Under the pieces are notes generated by a model. That model ran no database searches and was not told the DNA's origin. It saw nothing but the letters and a program-made list of their open reading frames with translations. Below, in pieces: positions 30,307 through 39,048 of a stretch of 64,000 nt of DNA. Origin of the DNA: an uncultured Dehalococcoidales bacterium (lineage in GTDB: Bacteria > Chloroflexota > Dehalococcoidia > E44-bin15); the NCBI GenBank assembly GCA_964448395.1, contig CAYUWM010000001.1, positions 21,997 to 85,996 on the forward strand, in the 5' to 3' direction. A program made the translations under genes and the position numbers. Each line of letters starts with the position of its first letter. Positions within the stretch are counted from its first letter, which is position 1.

Positions 30307-32388
30307 ATGTCCAGACAGTTCCCGTTAGAGAGAATAAGGAATATCGGCATTATCGCGCATATCGATGCAGGTAAAACAACGCTTACTGAGAGGATCCTGT
30401 ATTACACCGGCATAACCTACAAGCTGGGGGATGTGGATGATGGGACTGCGGTAATGGATTGGATGACCCAGGAAAAAGAGCGCGGTATTACTATTACCGC
30501 TGCTGCCACCACCTGCCACTGGCAGGATCATAAGATCAACATTATAGATACCCCGGGTCATGTGGATTTCACTGCCGAAGTCGAGAGGAGCCTTCGGGTG
30601 CTCGATGGAGGCATAGTGGTATTCGATGCGGTGGCCGGCGTACAGCCTCAGTCGGAGACCGTGTGGCGGCAGGCCGACCGCTACAAGGTCCCGCGGATCT
30701 GTCTGGTCAACAAGATGGATCGCACCGGGGCCGATTTCTTCCGCACCTTGAAAATGATCAGGGAACGGCTGGGTGCAACTGTGATACCGGTGCAACTGCC
30801 TCTGGGTGCAGAGGAGTCGTTTTCCGGGATAATAGATCTGGTTCATAAGCAGTTGCTAACCTTCTCCGGTGATCGGGGGGAAGAGCCTCAATGTGGCGAT
30901 ATCCCCGTCGAGTATGAGGAGATCGCGAGTCGATATCGTAATGAAATGATCGAAAAACTGGCCGAGTTTGATGATCAATTGATGATCCTCTATCTTGAAG
31001 GTGAAATCATCGATGCCGATGATATAAGCGGGGCTATCAGGCGAGCCACAATTGCGAATAAGGTGGTGCCGGCCCTCTGCGGGAGCGCGCTGCGCAATAA
31101 GGGGGTCCAGTCTGTGATGGATGCCGTTGTAGCTTATCTCCCCGCCCCATCCGATGTGCCCCCGGTGATAGGTATAGACCCCAGGGACGGCAAAGAGCTT
31201 CAGCGGTCTCCCAGCGATGGCAGCCCTTTTACCGCATTGGCCTTCAAGGTTGTCTCGGACCCTTTCATCGGCAGGTTAGTCTATATAAGGGTTTACTCCG
31301 GGACAGCTGAAGCCGGTGCTCAGGTATATAACTCAAGGAGCGAGCACAAGGAGAGGATCGGGCGTCTGCTGCAGATGCATGCCAACAGTCGTGAGGACAT
31401 AAAGCGGGTCGAGGCAGGTGATATTGCAGCCGCCATGGGTTTGAAGGATACCTTTACCGGCGATACACTGTGTCACCAGAACGCTAACATAGTGCTGGAG
31501 AGGATCCGGTTCCCGCTCCCCGTTTTGATGGTCACAATCGAGCCCAAGTCGCGGTCCGAACAGGATCGGCTCGATATCGCCTTGACCAAACTAGCCCAAG
31601 AGGACCCCACGTTCACCGCTCGTTACGATGAGGATACCGGTCAAACACTAATATCGGGCATGGGAGAGCTTCACCTCGATATTGTGGTGGAACGCCTGCT
31701 AAGCGAGTTCCAGGTGGAGGCACATGTAGGCAAGCCCCGTGTTGCCTACAAGGAAACTATCTCCAAGTCGGTCAAGGCCGAGGGGCGTTTTATCCGACAG
31801 AGTGGGGGCAGGGGGCAGTACGGCCATGTACTGCTCGAGTTGCACCCCGGCGAGCGGGGCTGCGGCTTCGAGTTCGTTAATGAAATCAAGGGTGGGACTA
31901 TTCCCAAAGGGTTCATTCCGCACATTGAGAGCGGGATCAGGGACGCGATGGAGGGTGGCGTTTTGGGAGGCTATCCCCTAGTAGATATTAAAGCTGTACT
32001 GTACGATGGAAGCTACCACGAGGTTGATTCCAGCGACATCGCTTTCAAGGCCGCTGGGGCCATAGCGCTGAGAGACGGTGCTAGGAAAGCCAGCCCTATC
32101 CTCCTCGAGCCTGTAATGAAAGTAGAGATCGTCACCCCTGAGGAATTCATGGGTGACATCCTGGGAGACCTCCACTCCAAACGGGGGCAGGTAACCAGTA
32201 TCGATAGCGAGAGGGACACCAAGATAGTGCACTGCTTGATCCCGCTGGCTGAGACCTTCGGCTATACTACCGATCTGAGGTCCATGAGCCAGGGGCGGGC
32301 CAGCTACACGATGGAGTTCTATCGCTATGAAGTGCTGCCCCCCGATCTGGCGGAGCAACTCATCATCAAAGTGGGAGGGCTGGCCTGA
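30307..32388 (+). CDS. fusA: elongation factor G
   Basis: [23 protein letters not shown] and NKMDR GTPase motifs. The ATG at 30307 ([12 protein letters not shown]) is preferred over 30295. Confidence 0.97.
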
Positions 32389-32696
32389 TGCCGAAGCAGA
32401 AGATCCGCATAAAACTCAAGGCCTTCGATCACCGCATACTGGATCAATCGGTTGAGCAGATCGTGGAGGCCGCCGAGCAAACCGGAGCCAAGGTAGTGGG
32501 GCCGGTACCCATGCCCACCCGGATAAAGAAGTTTTGCGTGATCCGCTCACCTCATGTGGATAAGGATTCCCGCGAGCAGTTCGAGATACGCACCCACAAA
32601 CGCCTTATCGATATACTGGATCCATCCTCAAAGACAATCGATACACTGACGCGGCTGGACCTGCCGGCGGGAGTGGACATTGAGATCAAGATTTAG
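32388..32696 (+). CDS. rpsJ: 30S ribosomal protein S10
   Basis: [17 protein letters not shown]...[19 protein letters not shown] overlap with fusA. Confidence 0.97.
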
Positions 32697-32716
32697 AGTT
32701 GAATATCGGTGACGCC

Positions 32717-33358
32717 ATGATAACGGGGATTATAGGAAGGAAACTCGGTATGACCCAGGTCTTCACTGAAGACCGGACGGTCGTGCCGGTTACCGCCATC
32801 GAGGCCGGCCCCTGTTTCGTGACCCAGATAAAGCGAGCAGCGGAGGATGGCTACAATGGCGTACAGCTGGGTTTCGGTGAGGCCAAGCGCCTTTCGTCAG
32901 CAGAGAAGGGTCACCTGAAGAAGCTGGGTATGCTCAAGCACCTGCGTGAATTCGAAGCCGATGATATCGATTCCGTCGCAGTAGGTCAAAAGATAGACGT
33001 GGGCATCTTCCAGCCTGGAGATCTGGTTAATGTAGCCGGCATATCTAAGGGCAAGGGATTCCAGGGTGGCGTCAAGCGGCACGGTTTCGCCGGCGGGCCC
33101 AAGACACACGGCCAGTCAGATCGCCATCGCGCACCAGGATCAGTAGGGGCAACATCCTCGCCGGGCAGGGTGTTCAAGGGACTCAGAATGGCGGGGCATA
33201 TGGGCAACCAAAATGTGACCATAAAGAAGCTCAGGGTGGTACAGGCGGATGCGGAACGCAACCTACTGCTGGTTCGCGGTGCGGTACCGGGGGCCAGAAA
33301 CGGCCTACTTAAAATAATGAAAGTAGCTAACCATGGGGGAAGCCCTGTCGAGGAGTAG
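32717..33358 (+). CDS. rplC: 50S ribosomal protein L3
   Basis: MITGIIGRKLGMTQVF N-terminus and GKGFQGGVKRH motif. Stop TAG at 33356-33358. Confidence 0.95.
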   Translation: MITGIIGRKLGMTQVFTEDRTVVPVTAIEAGPCFVTQIKRAAEDGYNGVQLGFGEAKRLSSAEKGHLKKLGMLKHLREFEADDIDSVAVGQKIDVGIFQPGDLVNVAGISKGKGFQGGVKRHGFAGGPKTHGQSDRHRAPGSVGATSSPGRVFKGLRMAGHMGNQNVTIKKLRVVQADAERNLLLVRGAVPGARNGLLKIMKVANHGGSPVEE

Positions 33359-33361
33359 ATA

Positions 33362-34561
33362 CTGTTTAAATTTGCGATATCCAGTGCCTTCAGGAGGAAG
33401 GGGATCGCTATATTTGCGATCTTCGGCACTTCCTTGGGTATAGCGCTAATGACCGTTTTACTGAGCATCTCCGCAGGCATGGATGACATGATGAACACTA
33501 TGATGACCGAGCTGGCAGGAGGGATTGGGATCTACCCTGCCGATAACCCCATGGCCTTCCTTACCGGTGGGGGTACACCATTCTCGGCCTCATATACATC
33601 CGATATCGAAGAAATTGACCACGTGGAGAGCGTTACCCCGATGGTCCTGTGGTTCATACCCACGCCTAGGGAGGGTGACCAGTTCGGCGCCGACTTCGGC
33701 GACCCCATGGGCGTCACTATAAGGGGGGTAGACTTTACGCAGGATGCCGAGCTGGACGGCCCCAGTGTTCACCTGACCGAGGGCAGCGCTCCAAAACCGG
33801 GTGAAAACCAGGTGATACTGGGAAACACGCTTGCCGCGTTTGCTCTTGCTGAGGGTGAGGAATTTGCCGACATCGGGGGAGAGTTCACTCTACTATCGGC
33901 AGAAAATCAACCGGTCACCTTCACCGTAGTGGGAATGTTTGAGACGGGAAGCAGCAGTATCGACTTTTACCCCTACACCGATATAGAGAGTGCAAGAGAG
34001 CTAGTCGGCATTGCCGGCGATGAGGTTAATTTTATTCACGTTGAAGTTGACACTACGGAGAACGTGGAGACGGTGAATGACGCTCTAATTGACCTGTTCG
34101 AGCGAGAGGGGGTTCCGGTACAGACAATGATCGCCACCGAACTTCTGGGATCCTTCAACGAGATGATGAGCACCATGAGCGGCTTCCTGTGGATCGTTTC
34201 GCTGGTGGCGGCGGTAGCCGGCGGCATCTCGATATTCATCGTCATGCTTATTTCAGTGATCGAACGTACCAAAGAGTTCGGCATACTGAAGGCTGCCGGC
34301 TGGTCCAATAACAATATCATCGGTTCGGTCATCGTGCAGTCTCTGGCGGTTGCTCTTCTGGGGGCGGCTGCAGGCCTGGGCTTCGGGTATTTAACGGGCC
34401 TCGGCATCGATCAATATCTAAATGTCAGCATAACCCTTATCACCTGGCAACTGGTACTTACAATAATAGGATTCGGGGTGCTGATGGGGGTAGTGGGAGG
34501 CCTTTACCCGGCACTCAGGGCGGCGCAGGTAAGCCCCATAGAGAGCATGAGGGCCGTATAG
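33362..34561 (+). CDS. MacB/FtsX-family ABC transporter permease (start codon uncertain)
   Basis: FtsX domain (ERTKEFGILKAAGW ... YPALRAAQVSPIESMR) and a ~200-aa extracytoplasmic domain. The family-typical N-terminus LFKFAISSAFRRKGIAIFAIFGTSLGIAL is encoded from 33362, upstream of the track's TTG at 33434. It begins right after the rplC stop, with only CTG/ATA as possible initiators. Confidence 0.8.
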   Translation: MFKFAISSAFRRKGIAIFAIFGTSLGIALMTVLLSISAGMDDMMNTMMTELAGGIGIYPADNPMAFLTGGGTPFSASYTSDIEEIDHVESVTPMVLWFIPTPREGDQFGADFGDPMGVTIRGVDFTQDAELDGPSVHLTEGSAPKPGENQVILGNTLAAFALAEGEEFADIGGEFTLLSAENQPVTFTVVGMFETGSSSIDFYPYTDIESARELVGIAGDEVNFIHVEVDTTENVETVNDALIDLFEREGVPVQTMIATELLGSFNEMMSTMSGFLWIVSLVAAVAGGISIFIVMLISVIERTKEFGILKAAGWSNNNIIGSVIVQSLAVALLGAAAGLGFGYLTGLGIDQYLNVSITLITWQLVLTIIGFGVLMGVVGGLYPALRAAQVSPIESMRAV

Positions 34562-35320
34562 GTGGCTGTTATGGAAGAACGCAGGACAAAGGCTGAACGT
34601 GGTGTAACAATATCCGATGCCAACTTCTGGCGCGATAACATCCTTGTCGTTCAAGATCTAACCAAGATATACGGCAAAGGCCCTACGGAAGTAGAAGCCC
34701 TCAAGAAGATAAACTTGAATGTGAAAAGAGGGGAGTTCATCGCCATACTGGGACCATCGGGGAGCGGCAAGACCACCTTCCTCAACATGCTGGGGGCTTT
34801 GGACCGGCCCACCAGCGGCCGCGTGGTTATCGATCGCATAGAGTCGAGCAGGGTTCCCGAGCGGCTGCTGTACCGGATACGGCGCGCCAAGCTCGGTTTT
34901 ATCTTCCAGACCTATTACCTGGTACCGACGCTGAATGCGTTACAGAATGTGCTCACCCCCGTATTGCCGGTAATAAATGGACGGCGGTATCATGGACGTG
35001 CCACCCGGTTGCTTCAGGTTGTAGGGCTCAAGAACCGTATGCATCATAAGCCGGGTGAACTCTCCGGCGGTGAGCAGCAGAGGGTAGCAATCGCCCGCGC
35101 CCTGATACTCAATCCAAAAGTGATCCTTGCCGATGAGCCTACCGGCAATCTGGATACCAGGACCAGTATGGAGATCATGGAATTGCTAAATCGCCTAAAC
35201 GTGAGGGGTGGAAAAACGTTGATTGTAGTTACTCATGACCGGCGCCTCGCCGAGAGTGCTGACAGGATACTGTACCTGATCGACGGGCAGTTGTTCGACG
35301 TCGCACCGGAGGGATTCTAA
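34562..35320 (+). CDS. ABC transporter ATP-binding protein (MacB/LolD-like)
   Basis: GPSGSGKTT Walker [16 protein letters not shown] signature, [11 protein letters not shown] Walker B. The GTG at 34562 abuts the permease stop; an alternative ATG is at 34571. Confidence 0.9.
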
Positions 35321-35977
35321 ATGCCACAGTTTGCGGTTCATAATGTTCAGGGAGAGGTCGTCGGCAACGTGAAGCTGCGTGACGACATATTTGCGGTGCC
35401 GATGAATCACGCCGTGGTTCACCAGGCTCTGGTGAGGCAACTGGCAAACGCCCGCCAGGGGACCGCCAGCAGCAAGACGCGCGGGCAGGTCTCAGGAGGG
35501 GGAGCCAAACCTTTCCGACAGAAGGGAACGGGGAGGGCGAGACGGGGAAGCTCTCGATCACCGCTGCTTAAAGGTGGCGGCGTAATATTCGGGCCCCAGC
35601 CTCGGGATCACCGACAGGATATGCCGAAGAAGATGCGCCGCCTCGCCCTGAGGTGTGTTCTATCAGCGAAGGCAGCAGAGAACGAGATGATCGTGGTGGA
35701 TAAGCTGAAAATGAAGGGGCCGAAGACAAGCGAGATGGCCCAAATACTGGAGGCGCTGGGGGTAGACACTTCGGTAATCATCGTAACCGCCGAGCCGGAT
35801 ATCAATATATACAAGTCGGCACGCAACATAAGCCAGACGAAAACACTGCCGGCAAGCATGCTCAATATCGGTGATCTGCTATCCCACCGGAAAATCATCC
35901 TTGCCAAGAAGGCGATACGGGCGGTTGAAGAGATTGCAGCAGCGGAACCGAAGAATGCGGTGAAATCAGCTACTTAG
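35321..35977 (+). CDS. rplD: 50S ribosomal protein L4
   Basis: KTRGQVSGGGAKPFRQKGTGRARRGS motif. The ATG directly follows the ABC ATPase stop, and the SD GGAGGG (35308-35313) lies inside that gene. Confidence 0.97.
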   Translation: MPQFAVHNVQGEVVGNVKLRDDIFAVPMNHAVVHQALVRQLANARQGTASSKTRGQVSGGGAKPFRQKGTGRARRGSSRSPLLKGGGVIFGPQPRDHRQDMPKKMRRLALRCVLSAKAAENEMIVVDKLKMKGPKTSEMAQILEALGVDTSVIIVTAEPDINIYKSARNISQTKTLPASMLNIGDLLSHRKIILAKKAIRAVEEIAAAEPKNAVKSAT

Positions 35978-37854: not shown

Positions 37855-39048
37855 TTGGGGCATAAAGTTCATCCGATTGGTTTCAGGCTGGGTTTTGTTA
37901 AGGATTGGCAGGCGAAGTGGTATGCCGATAAGGCCTATACCGTTCTTATCCAAGAAGACCTGAGAATCAGAAAGGCTATAGAGTATAAATATGGCTTTGA
38001 TGATATATCACGGGTCGAAATCGAGCGCTCGGCTAATCAGGTGACGGTAGCGGTCTATACAGCCCGTCCAGGAATAGTAATCGGCAGGGGCGGTCAGCGG
38101 GTTGACGAGATGAGGCAAGTGCTGGAGAAGACAGCTGGAAAGCGGGTGCGCCTGAATATCCTCGAGGTTGCTCAACCAGAACTGGACGCTTACCTTGTTG
38201 CTAGGAGCATCGCTCAGCAGATGGAGCGGAGAATATCACACCGGCGCGCTATGAAGCAGGCAATCTCCCGGGCGATGGAGAGGGGGGCACAGGGGATCAA
38301 GATCACCTGCGCCGGCCGGCTTTCCGGATCGGAATATGCAAGGAGGGAGACACTGCATCAAGGAAGGGTGCCGCTTCATACCCTGCGAGCAGATATCGAT
38401 TACGCGCAGGCGGAGGCACATACTACGTTGGGGCGAACCGGGGTGAAGGTCTGGATTTACAAAGGCGATGTTATCTCTGAGGCAGAAAAGATGTTCATGG
38501 AGAGGTCACTGCTGACCCCCGTTGAGGAAGTGGCACCTGCCGAGATTGAACCTGATGTAACAGAGGTTGCCACACTCAAGGACAGTGCGGGTGATGCCGA
38601 GGCGGAGGTAAAGGAGACGGCGGAGGTAGTGAACCTTGAGAAAACAGCAGAGGAACGAGGAGCGGCAGAGGAGGAAAATAAAGCAACGGCAGAGGTAGAA
38701 ACCGAGGGCGAGGCGAAGGCAGAGACTGTGATCGCGGATGAGCCCAAGGCTAAAGTTAAGGCGAAAGCCAAGATAAAGAAAGAAGCTGCCACAACGGAGG
38801 AGCCGAAAGCTAAAGCCAGGTCTAAGGCAAAAGAAGGGGACAAGGCCGCGGCCAAGACGGCGGAGAAGACCGGAGCCCGATCTAAGACCAAGGCCAAGAA
38901 GGAAATCGAGCCGGCAGATAAGCCTGCAACCAAAACCAAGAGCAAGGCTGAGAAAAAGACCGACACCGGGATATCAGGTGATTCCGAGACGAAATCCAAG
39001 AAAAAGGCGAAGCCCAAAGAGCCGGCAGAACCACAAAATGCTGATTAA
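37855..39048 (+). CDS. rpsC: 30S ribosomal protein S3 with a ~175-aa low-complexity C-terminal extension
   Basis: [14 protein letters not shown]-terminus (TTG start), then KH and S3-C domains to about aa 215, then an acidic Glu/Ala-rich segment followed by a Lys/Ala-rich segment. 397 aa in total. Confidence 0.93.

Follow-up and report, generated by a model that had tools for sequence, protein, structure and literature searches.

How is a gene translated whose coding frame opens directly behind the stop codon of another gene and offers none of the usual initiation codons? This question is raised by a locus in the window, by which we mean the whole stretch of 64,000 nucleotides (nt) analysed here, taken from contig CAYUWM010000001.1 (positions 21,997 to 85,996, forward strand) of assembly GCA_964448395.1 of an uncultured Dehalococcoidales bacterium. 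In this window rplC, the gene of ribosomal protein L3, is followed in the same frame by a gene for an ATP-binding cassette (ABC) permease of the MacB/FtsX type. From the comparison of orthologous loci we conclude, with a probability of about 0.88, that CTG 33362 is the initiation codon of this permease. It is a rare but known kind of start, of which this is a new example, and it changes no general principle. What is somewhat unusual is the depth of the CTG conservation, its repeated origin within one gene and its setting in a ribosomal operon.

The start site of the permease gene

The genome of the window (G000) is a metagenome-assembled genome (MAG), 89% complete in 93 contigs, and G001 is a genome of the same genus; other G-numbers denote genomes and P-numbers metagenome relatives. 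The start region of the permease gene is made up of the following features:

33351 to 33355, forward strand: Shine-Dalgarno (SD) motif AGGAG, within GAGGAG 33350-33355, the last two sense codons of rplC
33359 to 33361, forward strand: triplet ATA, a spacer that separates the L3 stop from the proposed start codon; the homologous triplet is variable
33362 to 33364, forward strand: probable CTG initiation codon of the permease, aligned with ATG/GTG/TTG of orthologues and invariant in 11 clade sequences
33362 to 34561, forward strand: MacB/FtsX-type (type VII) ABC permease of 399 amino acids (PF12704, PF02687), stop TAG 34559-34561

Positions 33350-33364 read GAGGAG TAG ATA CTG, with the stop codon TAG of the L3 open reading frame (ORF) at 33356-33358. 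Past this TAG the same frame continues as ATA (33359) CTG (33362) TTT AAA TTT GCG ATA TCC AGT GCC TTC AGG AGG AAG, which translates into (I)LFKFAISSAFRRKGIAIFAIFGTSLGIAL and, over a longer stretch, into (I)LFKFAISSAFRRKGIAIFAIFGTSLGIALM... The first in-frame ATG, GTG or TTG is TTG 33434 (codon 25 counted from the CTG), and the next is ATG 33449 (codon 30). An earlier note on this DNA had pointed out that the permease N-terminus continues the L3 frame past the TAG and lacks an ATG, GTG or TTG before TTG 33434; the sequence and the list of ORFs both agree. The AGGAG ends 6 nt before CTG 33362, and the genome-wide modal spacing between SD and start is 5-6 nt. G001, whose permease shares 93% protein identity, carries an identical TAG ATA CTG.

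Starts were compared over about 40 orthologous loci, with a core set of 25 in-operon orthologues from genomes of the window's order; contigs of the closest relatives were retrieved after a protein-collection search, and their rplC/permease junctions were read directly. Most genera of the window's family, and also the sister family, have orthologues with 46-63% identity. With few exceptions these lie between rplC and the ATPase gene/rplD, and every protein alignment begins at the codon aligned with CTG 33362. In the core set this codon is ATG (6 cases), GTG (7), TTG (9) or CTG (3: G000, G001 and G015). An NTG column followed by 28 codons that are conserved as protein is the pattern that marks a start codon. 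Ahead of the aligned start, most relatives have the end of rplC in another frame: in 14 orthologous loci the L3 stop lies over permease codons 2-3 (NTGTTTAG), an overlap of 8 nt, and in the others it lies 1 to 11 nt before the start. Since L3 there occupies another frame and overlaps permease codons 2-3, no longer N-terminus can be conserved.

Conservation of the CTG codon

CTG is found at the aligned start in 13 distinct sequences, of which 11 form one clade (57-100% identity). All 11 carry AGGAG and a stop codon (TAG or TAA), followed by a triplet that varies (ATA, ATC, ATT, AGA, CTC or CTT) and by the invariant CTG. The metagenome relatives in the clade read as follows:

P0004: GAG GAG TAG ATA CTG
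P0005: CAG GAG TAG ATC CTG
P0008, P0025 and P0088: AAG GAG TAA ATC CTG
P0012: AAG GAG TAG ATT CTG
P0017: AAG GAG TAG CTT CTG
P0018: AAG GAG TAA CTC CTG
P0020: GAG GAG TAG AGA CTG

In the maximum-likelihood tree, which was built before P0004, P0017 and P0018 were added, seven CTG sequences form one clade that is sister to a TTG sequence, with P0020 unresolved beside it. G015 and P0118 stand apart, each inside a TTG clade, and P0118 is an independent case of CTG, preceded by ACC in an overlapping arrangement. The CTG sequences are each time nested among TTG-bearing ones, which gives at least three TTG-to-CTG events. Among the closely related genomes of a published survey, just 1 of 2,468 ancestral UUG starts had switched to CUG (PMC5622118).

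Counts of fourfold-degenerate sites, leucine codons and the nonsynonymous-to-synonymous polymorphism ratio (pN/pS) were made on eight sequences of the CTG clade. Among these, none of the 73 fourfold-degenerate sites in conserved columns and none of the 13 conserved leucine codons is invariant, and the start CTG is identical in all eight as well as in three more sequences. Each first-base change of this CTG would yield ATG, GTG or TTG, and none is seen, which argues that the C is held by selection. Against a background of saturated synonymous sites, selection appears to have preserved the CTG start in this clade. The codons that follow point in the same direction: pN/pS is 0.10 over codons 2-29 as compared to 0.28 in the rest of the protein, and over the first 24 codons G000 and G001 differ by seven synonymous and four conservative changes (nonsynonymous-to-synonymous substitution ratio, dN/dS, 0.137). 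Such strong purifying selection on codons 2-29 implies that the stretch ahead of any canonical start is translated.

The L3 proteins of the CTG clade have a divergent C-terminal tail (...NHGGSPVEE in the window) that ends in the permease frame. An indel in this tail apparently created the arrangement of stop codon, 3-nt gap and CTG. Just upstream of the SD, still within the coding sequence of the L3 tail, a hairpin-like repeat CAGGG...CCCTG is present in most clade members and absent in two.

The permease and its N-terminus

The protein beginning at CTG 33362 matches the domains MacB_PCD (PF12704, residues 19-244, 62.7 bits) and FtsX (PF02687, residues 279-393, 62.1 bits), both above the gathering score. 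A hydropathy scan finds four hydrophobic segments (residues 13-40, 268-303, 318-347 and 353-385) with the extracytoplasmic domain between the first two, so that the predicted topology is one of four membrane helices and a large loop between helices 1 and 2. Matches in the PDB include MacB (5gko, 5lil), Spr0695 of Spr0694-0695 (5xu1), LolF (9w37) and YtrF (9o9x). Residue 4 of Spr0695 (5xu1_M) is aligned to residue 3 of the translated query; the N-termini of the family therefore fall at the position of CTG 33362. The Pfam domains, the hydropathy and this alignment bear out the recognition, in the earlier note, of a MacB/FtsX-type N-terminus with its first helix.

An identity as LolC/E was considered and rejected, the score against TIGR02212 (lolCE) being 85.6 bits as compared to a cutoff of 362.45. 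Scores fall under every NCBIfam equivalog cutoff, and the permease is therefore not LolC/E, MacB or FtsX proper. It resembles the type VII systems MacB, LolCDE and FtsEX in its basic cytoplasmic N-terminal stub, a hydrophobic segment, the MacB_PCD domain and three further segments with the FtsX domain, and also in the separate LolD/MacB-like ATPase gene that adjoins it. It differs from them in that an adaptor gene is not adjacent here and in that the gene lies within the S10 ribosomal-protein operon.

Alternative explanations

One alternative is a start at ATA 33359, right after the L3 stop, with the CTG as an ordinary second codon for leucine. NCBI table 11 counts ATA among the near-cognate starts, its activity in E. 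coli is at about the level of CUG, 1-2% of AUG (bioRxiv 10.1101/063800), and ATA, ATC or ATT occupies the triplet in 9 of the 13 CTG-bearing sequences. However, three clade members have AGA, CTC or CTT at this place and the independent case has ACC, and none of these four is a start codon. A CTG that merely encoded leucine should moreover vary like the 13 conserved leucine codons, and the spacing to the SD would be 3 nt rather than 6 nt. The canonical starts of the orthologues also align with the CTG and not with the ATA. The earlier note had left CTG 33362 and ATA 33359 side by side as the only candidates; the first has gained from the alignment of orthologous starts and its invariance in the clade, and the second has lost by the variability of its triplet. 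We consider initiation at the ATA very unlikely.

Similarly small is the chance that the real start lies downstream, at TTG 33434 or ATG 33449, and that the 24-29 codons upstream of it are untranslated. Public gene calls for the closest relatives (357-371 amino acids) do begin at or past a conserved Met30. Yet the low pN/pS of codons 2-29 coexists with abundant synonymous change, and codon 25 behaves as an ordinary variable leucine codon, flipping between TTG and CTG (CTG in G001; CTT, CTA, CTC or TTA elsewhere). As the earlier note had anticipated, a start at 33434 would cut off the RRK anchor and at least half of the first hydrophobic segment, which spans both codon 25 and codon 30. Every orthologue with a canonical start includes the upstream segment, and the alignment to orthologous permeases revealed no functional orthologue that starts at the position equivalent to 33434.

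It is more improbable still that the missing start reflects an error of sequencing or assembly, or a decaying pseudogene. The incompleteness and fragmentation of the MAG would allow for the former, and the latter has a parallel in genus g11, in which the transporter is truly reduced to a remnant. Against an error, 33352-33372 is covered with zero differences by Logan contigs of three metagenome runs from salt marsh and one from marine sediment (one of these four may be the source sample), and CTG recurs in 12 further distinct relatives. The same data dispose of the sequencing error that the earlier note had entertained, and no corrected sequence with an ATG or GTG at 33359-33364 came to light. 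Against a pseudogene, the ORF is intact and dN/dS over the whole gene is 0.089 in comparison with G001.

Read-through of TAG 33356, by a suppressor transfer RNA (tRNA) or as a programmed event, into an L3-permease fusion, which the earlier note had also proposed, is extremely improbable: L3 and permease do share one frame with only the TAG between them in G000, G001 and several relatives, but TAA replaces the TAG in five clade members, L3 lies in a different frame with an 8-nt overlap with the start in most orthologues, aragorn found no tRNA with a CUA anticodon in the genome and only a selenocysteine tRNA (tRNA-Sec), TAG is the commonest stop (546 of the 1,511 ORFs in a crude set for this genome), and to our knowledge the fusion of a ribosomal protein to a membrane permease is without precedent.

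Several observations weigh against initiation at CTG 33362 itself. The start is inferred from comparison, the organism being uncultured, and the argument from selection draws on one clade and so reflects one origin and its retention. Among start-less ORF 5' ends of the genome, an SD followed by CTG occurs in 3 of 97 as compared to a background of 3.4%, which is no enrichment. A 16S ribosomal RNA gene was not found in the G000 MAG, so that the anti-SD cannot be read from it. Lastly, the SD is weakly predicted to pair with CTGTTT, as part of a consensus fold of -7.5 kcal/mol given by RNAalifold for the junction, and this pairing could be another reason for the conservation of the C; the fold contains zero covarying pairs and the pairing thus has no support from covariation. 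As to the genome-wide count, the other two hits look like chance; one of them is the frame left open upstream of rplF, a gene with a GTG start of its own. The lack of enrichment indicates that CTG initiation is a property of the permease gene and not a habit of the whole lineage.

How the CTG start might work

NCBI table 11 includes CTG among the bacterial initiators, and the near-cognate codons comprise CUG, AUU, AUC and AUA; AUU starts are used by infC and pcnB of E. coli. Coupling of termination and reinitiation is likewise known from polycistronic operons in which a stop codon adjoins or overlaps the next start. In E. coli, initiation at CUG reaches 1-2% of that at AUG, and model genomes have annotated starts at this codon (Hecht et al., bioRxiv 10.1101/063800). 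Discrimination against CUG takes place at the stage of the 30S subunit and initiation factor 3 (IF3) (PMC11497404).

We propose that CTG 33362 would be read by the initiator formylmethionyl-tRNA (fMet-tRNA), giving a permease of 399 amino acids that begins with MFKFAISSAFRRKG. The AGGAG at 33351-33355, 6 nt upstream of the CTG, would position the ribosome, with the L3 stop TAG and the free triplet ATA serving as the spacer. Some of the initiating ribosomes have probably just finished translating rplC, whose stop lies 3 nt before the start, and the weak codon most likely holds synthesis of the transporter far below that of the ribosomal proteins encoded on the same messenger RNA (mRNA).

Coupling of permease initiation to L3 termination is plausible from the layout of the loci. 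In every in-operon orthologue the L3 stop falls within -8 to +11 nt of the start, the gap in the window being 3 nt. ATG starts are absent from all 26 tightly coupled loci (the 8-nt overlap in 14, a gap of 3 nt in 11 and of 1 nt in one) and present in 6 of the 9 loci with a gap of 10-11 nt, a contrast that is phylogenetically confounded. Non-ATG starts make up 19 of the 25 core orthologues as compared to a crude genome baseline of about 39-44%, which we do not press given that the cases are few and phylogenetically non-independent.

The occurrence of at least three TTG-to-CTG changes in one gene, together with the lack of ATG in the 26 tightly coupled loci, hints at a further-reaching reading, in which CTG is a selected translational step-down valve and the transporter is made almost only by ribosomes that reinitiate after L3 termination. 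We regard this as a tentative idea, and as rather unlikely on present evidence. If it were true, free 30S subunits with IF3 would largely reject the codon, and transporter output would track the translation of ribosomal proteins at a roughly hundredfold lower level; output could also rise when initiation fidelity or IF3 availability drops.

The permease start shares with the known near-cognate starts (infC, pcnB and the CUG class) a codon one base away from AUG behind a normal SD, with very low efficiency expected. It differs from them in that its CTG has remained unchanged in a clade in which synonymous sites have reached saturation, and that CTG has at least three origins in one gene family, and, with regard to infC, no autoregulatory logic of that kind is known for the permease gene. 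The L3 stop 3 nt before the permease start resembles termination-reinitiation systems, yet the permease also has a good SD, so that independent 30S initiation is possible.

The transporter within the ribosomal operon

The gene order in the window is fusA, rpsJ (32388-32696), rplC (to 33358), permease, ATPase, rplD (35321-35977) and rplW. The neighbours of the permease gene are:

32699 to 33358, forward strand: rplC, ribosomal protein L3 (TIGR03625 L3_bact, E 1.1e-78), stop TAG 33356-33358
34571 to 35320, forward strand: partner ABC ATPase, LolD/MacB/FtsE-like (PF00005; TIGR02211, E 1.2e-68, below the cutoff)
35321 to 35977, forward strand: rplD, ribosomal protein L4 (TIGR03953, E 6e-73), whose ATG abuts the TAA stop of the ATPase gene

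Two of these genes probably start downstream of the codon that opens their ORF. For rplC, ATG 32717 is a likelier start than the ORF-opening TTG 32699: the N-terminus of the L3 family (MITGIIGRKLGMTQ) corresponds to translation from ATG 32717, and the L3 profile match begins at residue 10 of the form that starts at TTG 32699. The ATPase ORF opens with GTG 34562, abutting the permease TAG, and here ATG 34571 is the likely start. An ATG at this aligned position is common to nearly all orthologues and is used by gene callers (249 amino acids), and it is preceded by AGGTG. Nearly all orthologous permeases stop with TAG because TAGGTG doubles as the SD of the ATPase gene.

The transporter pair between rplC and rplD is specific to the window's order. 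It is found at this position in essentially every genome of the order that has the pair, in families f1 and f2 (loci L002-L031 and L044-L073), and in 28 other families of Dehalococcoidia rplD comes immediately after rplC, which makes the insertion a trait at the level of the order. Nothing relevant came out of a search of the literature for an ABC transporter within the S10 operon in Dehalococcoidia. Extra copies of the permease-ATPase pair lie outside the ribosomal operon at G005:C79 (L003), at G047:C1 (L027) and on a metagenome contig (L043). They start with ATG (two, behind AGGAGG) or GTG, and G005 holds both an in-operon and an out-of-operon copy. In genus g11 (L019, G024:C47, and L020, G011:C181), a remnant that joins permease residues ~2-144 to residues ~204-252 of the ATPase has stayed between rplC and rplD; it looks like the product of an internal deletion and a stage in the loss of the insert.

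Metatranscriptome contigs match 33246-33396 (a contig of 151 nt across the L3/permease junction), 34301-34460 (within the permease gene) and 35034-35352 (across the ATPase/L4 junction). These sparse and short contigs are compatible with a single transcript running through the junctions, a weak indication that cannot address initiation.

Elsewhere in the window, the ORF of ribosomal protein S3 (37855-39048) encodes 397 amino acids; the Pfam S3 domains stop near residue 201, leaving a long C-terminal extension. The tRNA-Sec encoded by G000 (anticodon TCA; contig positions 4571-4668) makes selenoproteins probable and is unrelated to TAG 33356.

Consequences for annotation and expression

Standard gene callers accept only ATG, GTG and TTG. 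The protein-collection entries of the closest relatives, at 357-371 amino acids, cover ~93% of the query, and exact look-up in that collection found neither the 375-residue nor the 399-residue form of the window's permease; a form of 370 amino acids beginning at Met30 is held instead. Public calls thus shorten these permeases by 29 residues, so that the basic anchor is lost together with most of membrane helix 1. As the database entries are truncated, the topology and structure predictions derived from them are wrong.

Beyond annotation, the locus is of interest for evolution: judged by comparison, its very weak start codon seems to have been actively kept and not just tolerated. It may also illustrate how a cell might make a membrane protein in few copies from a gene that lies within one of its most intensely translated operons.

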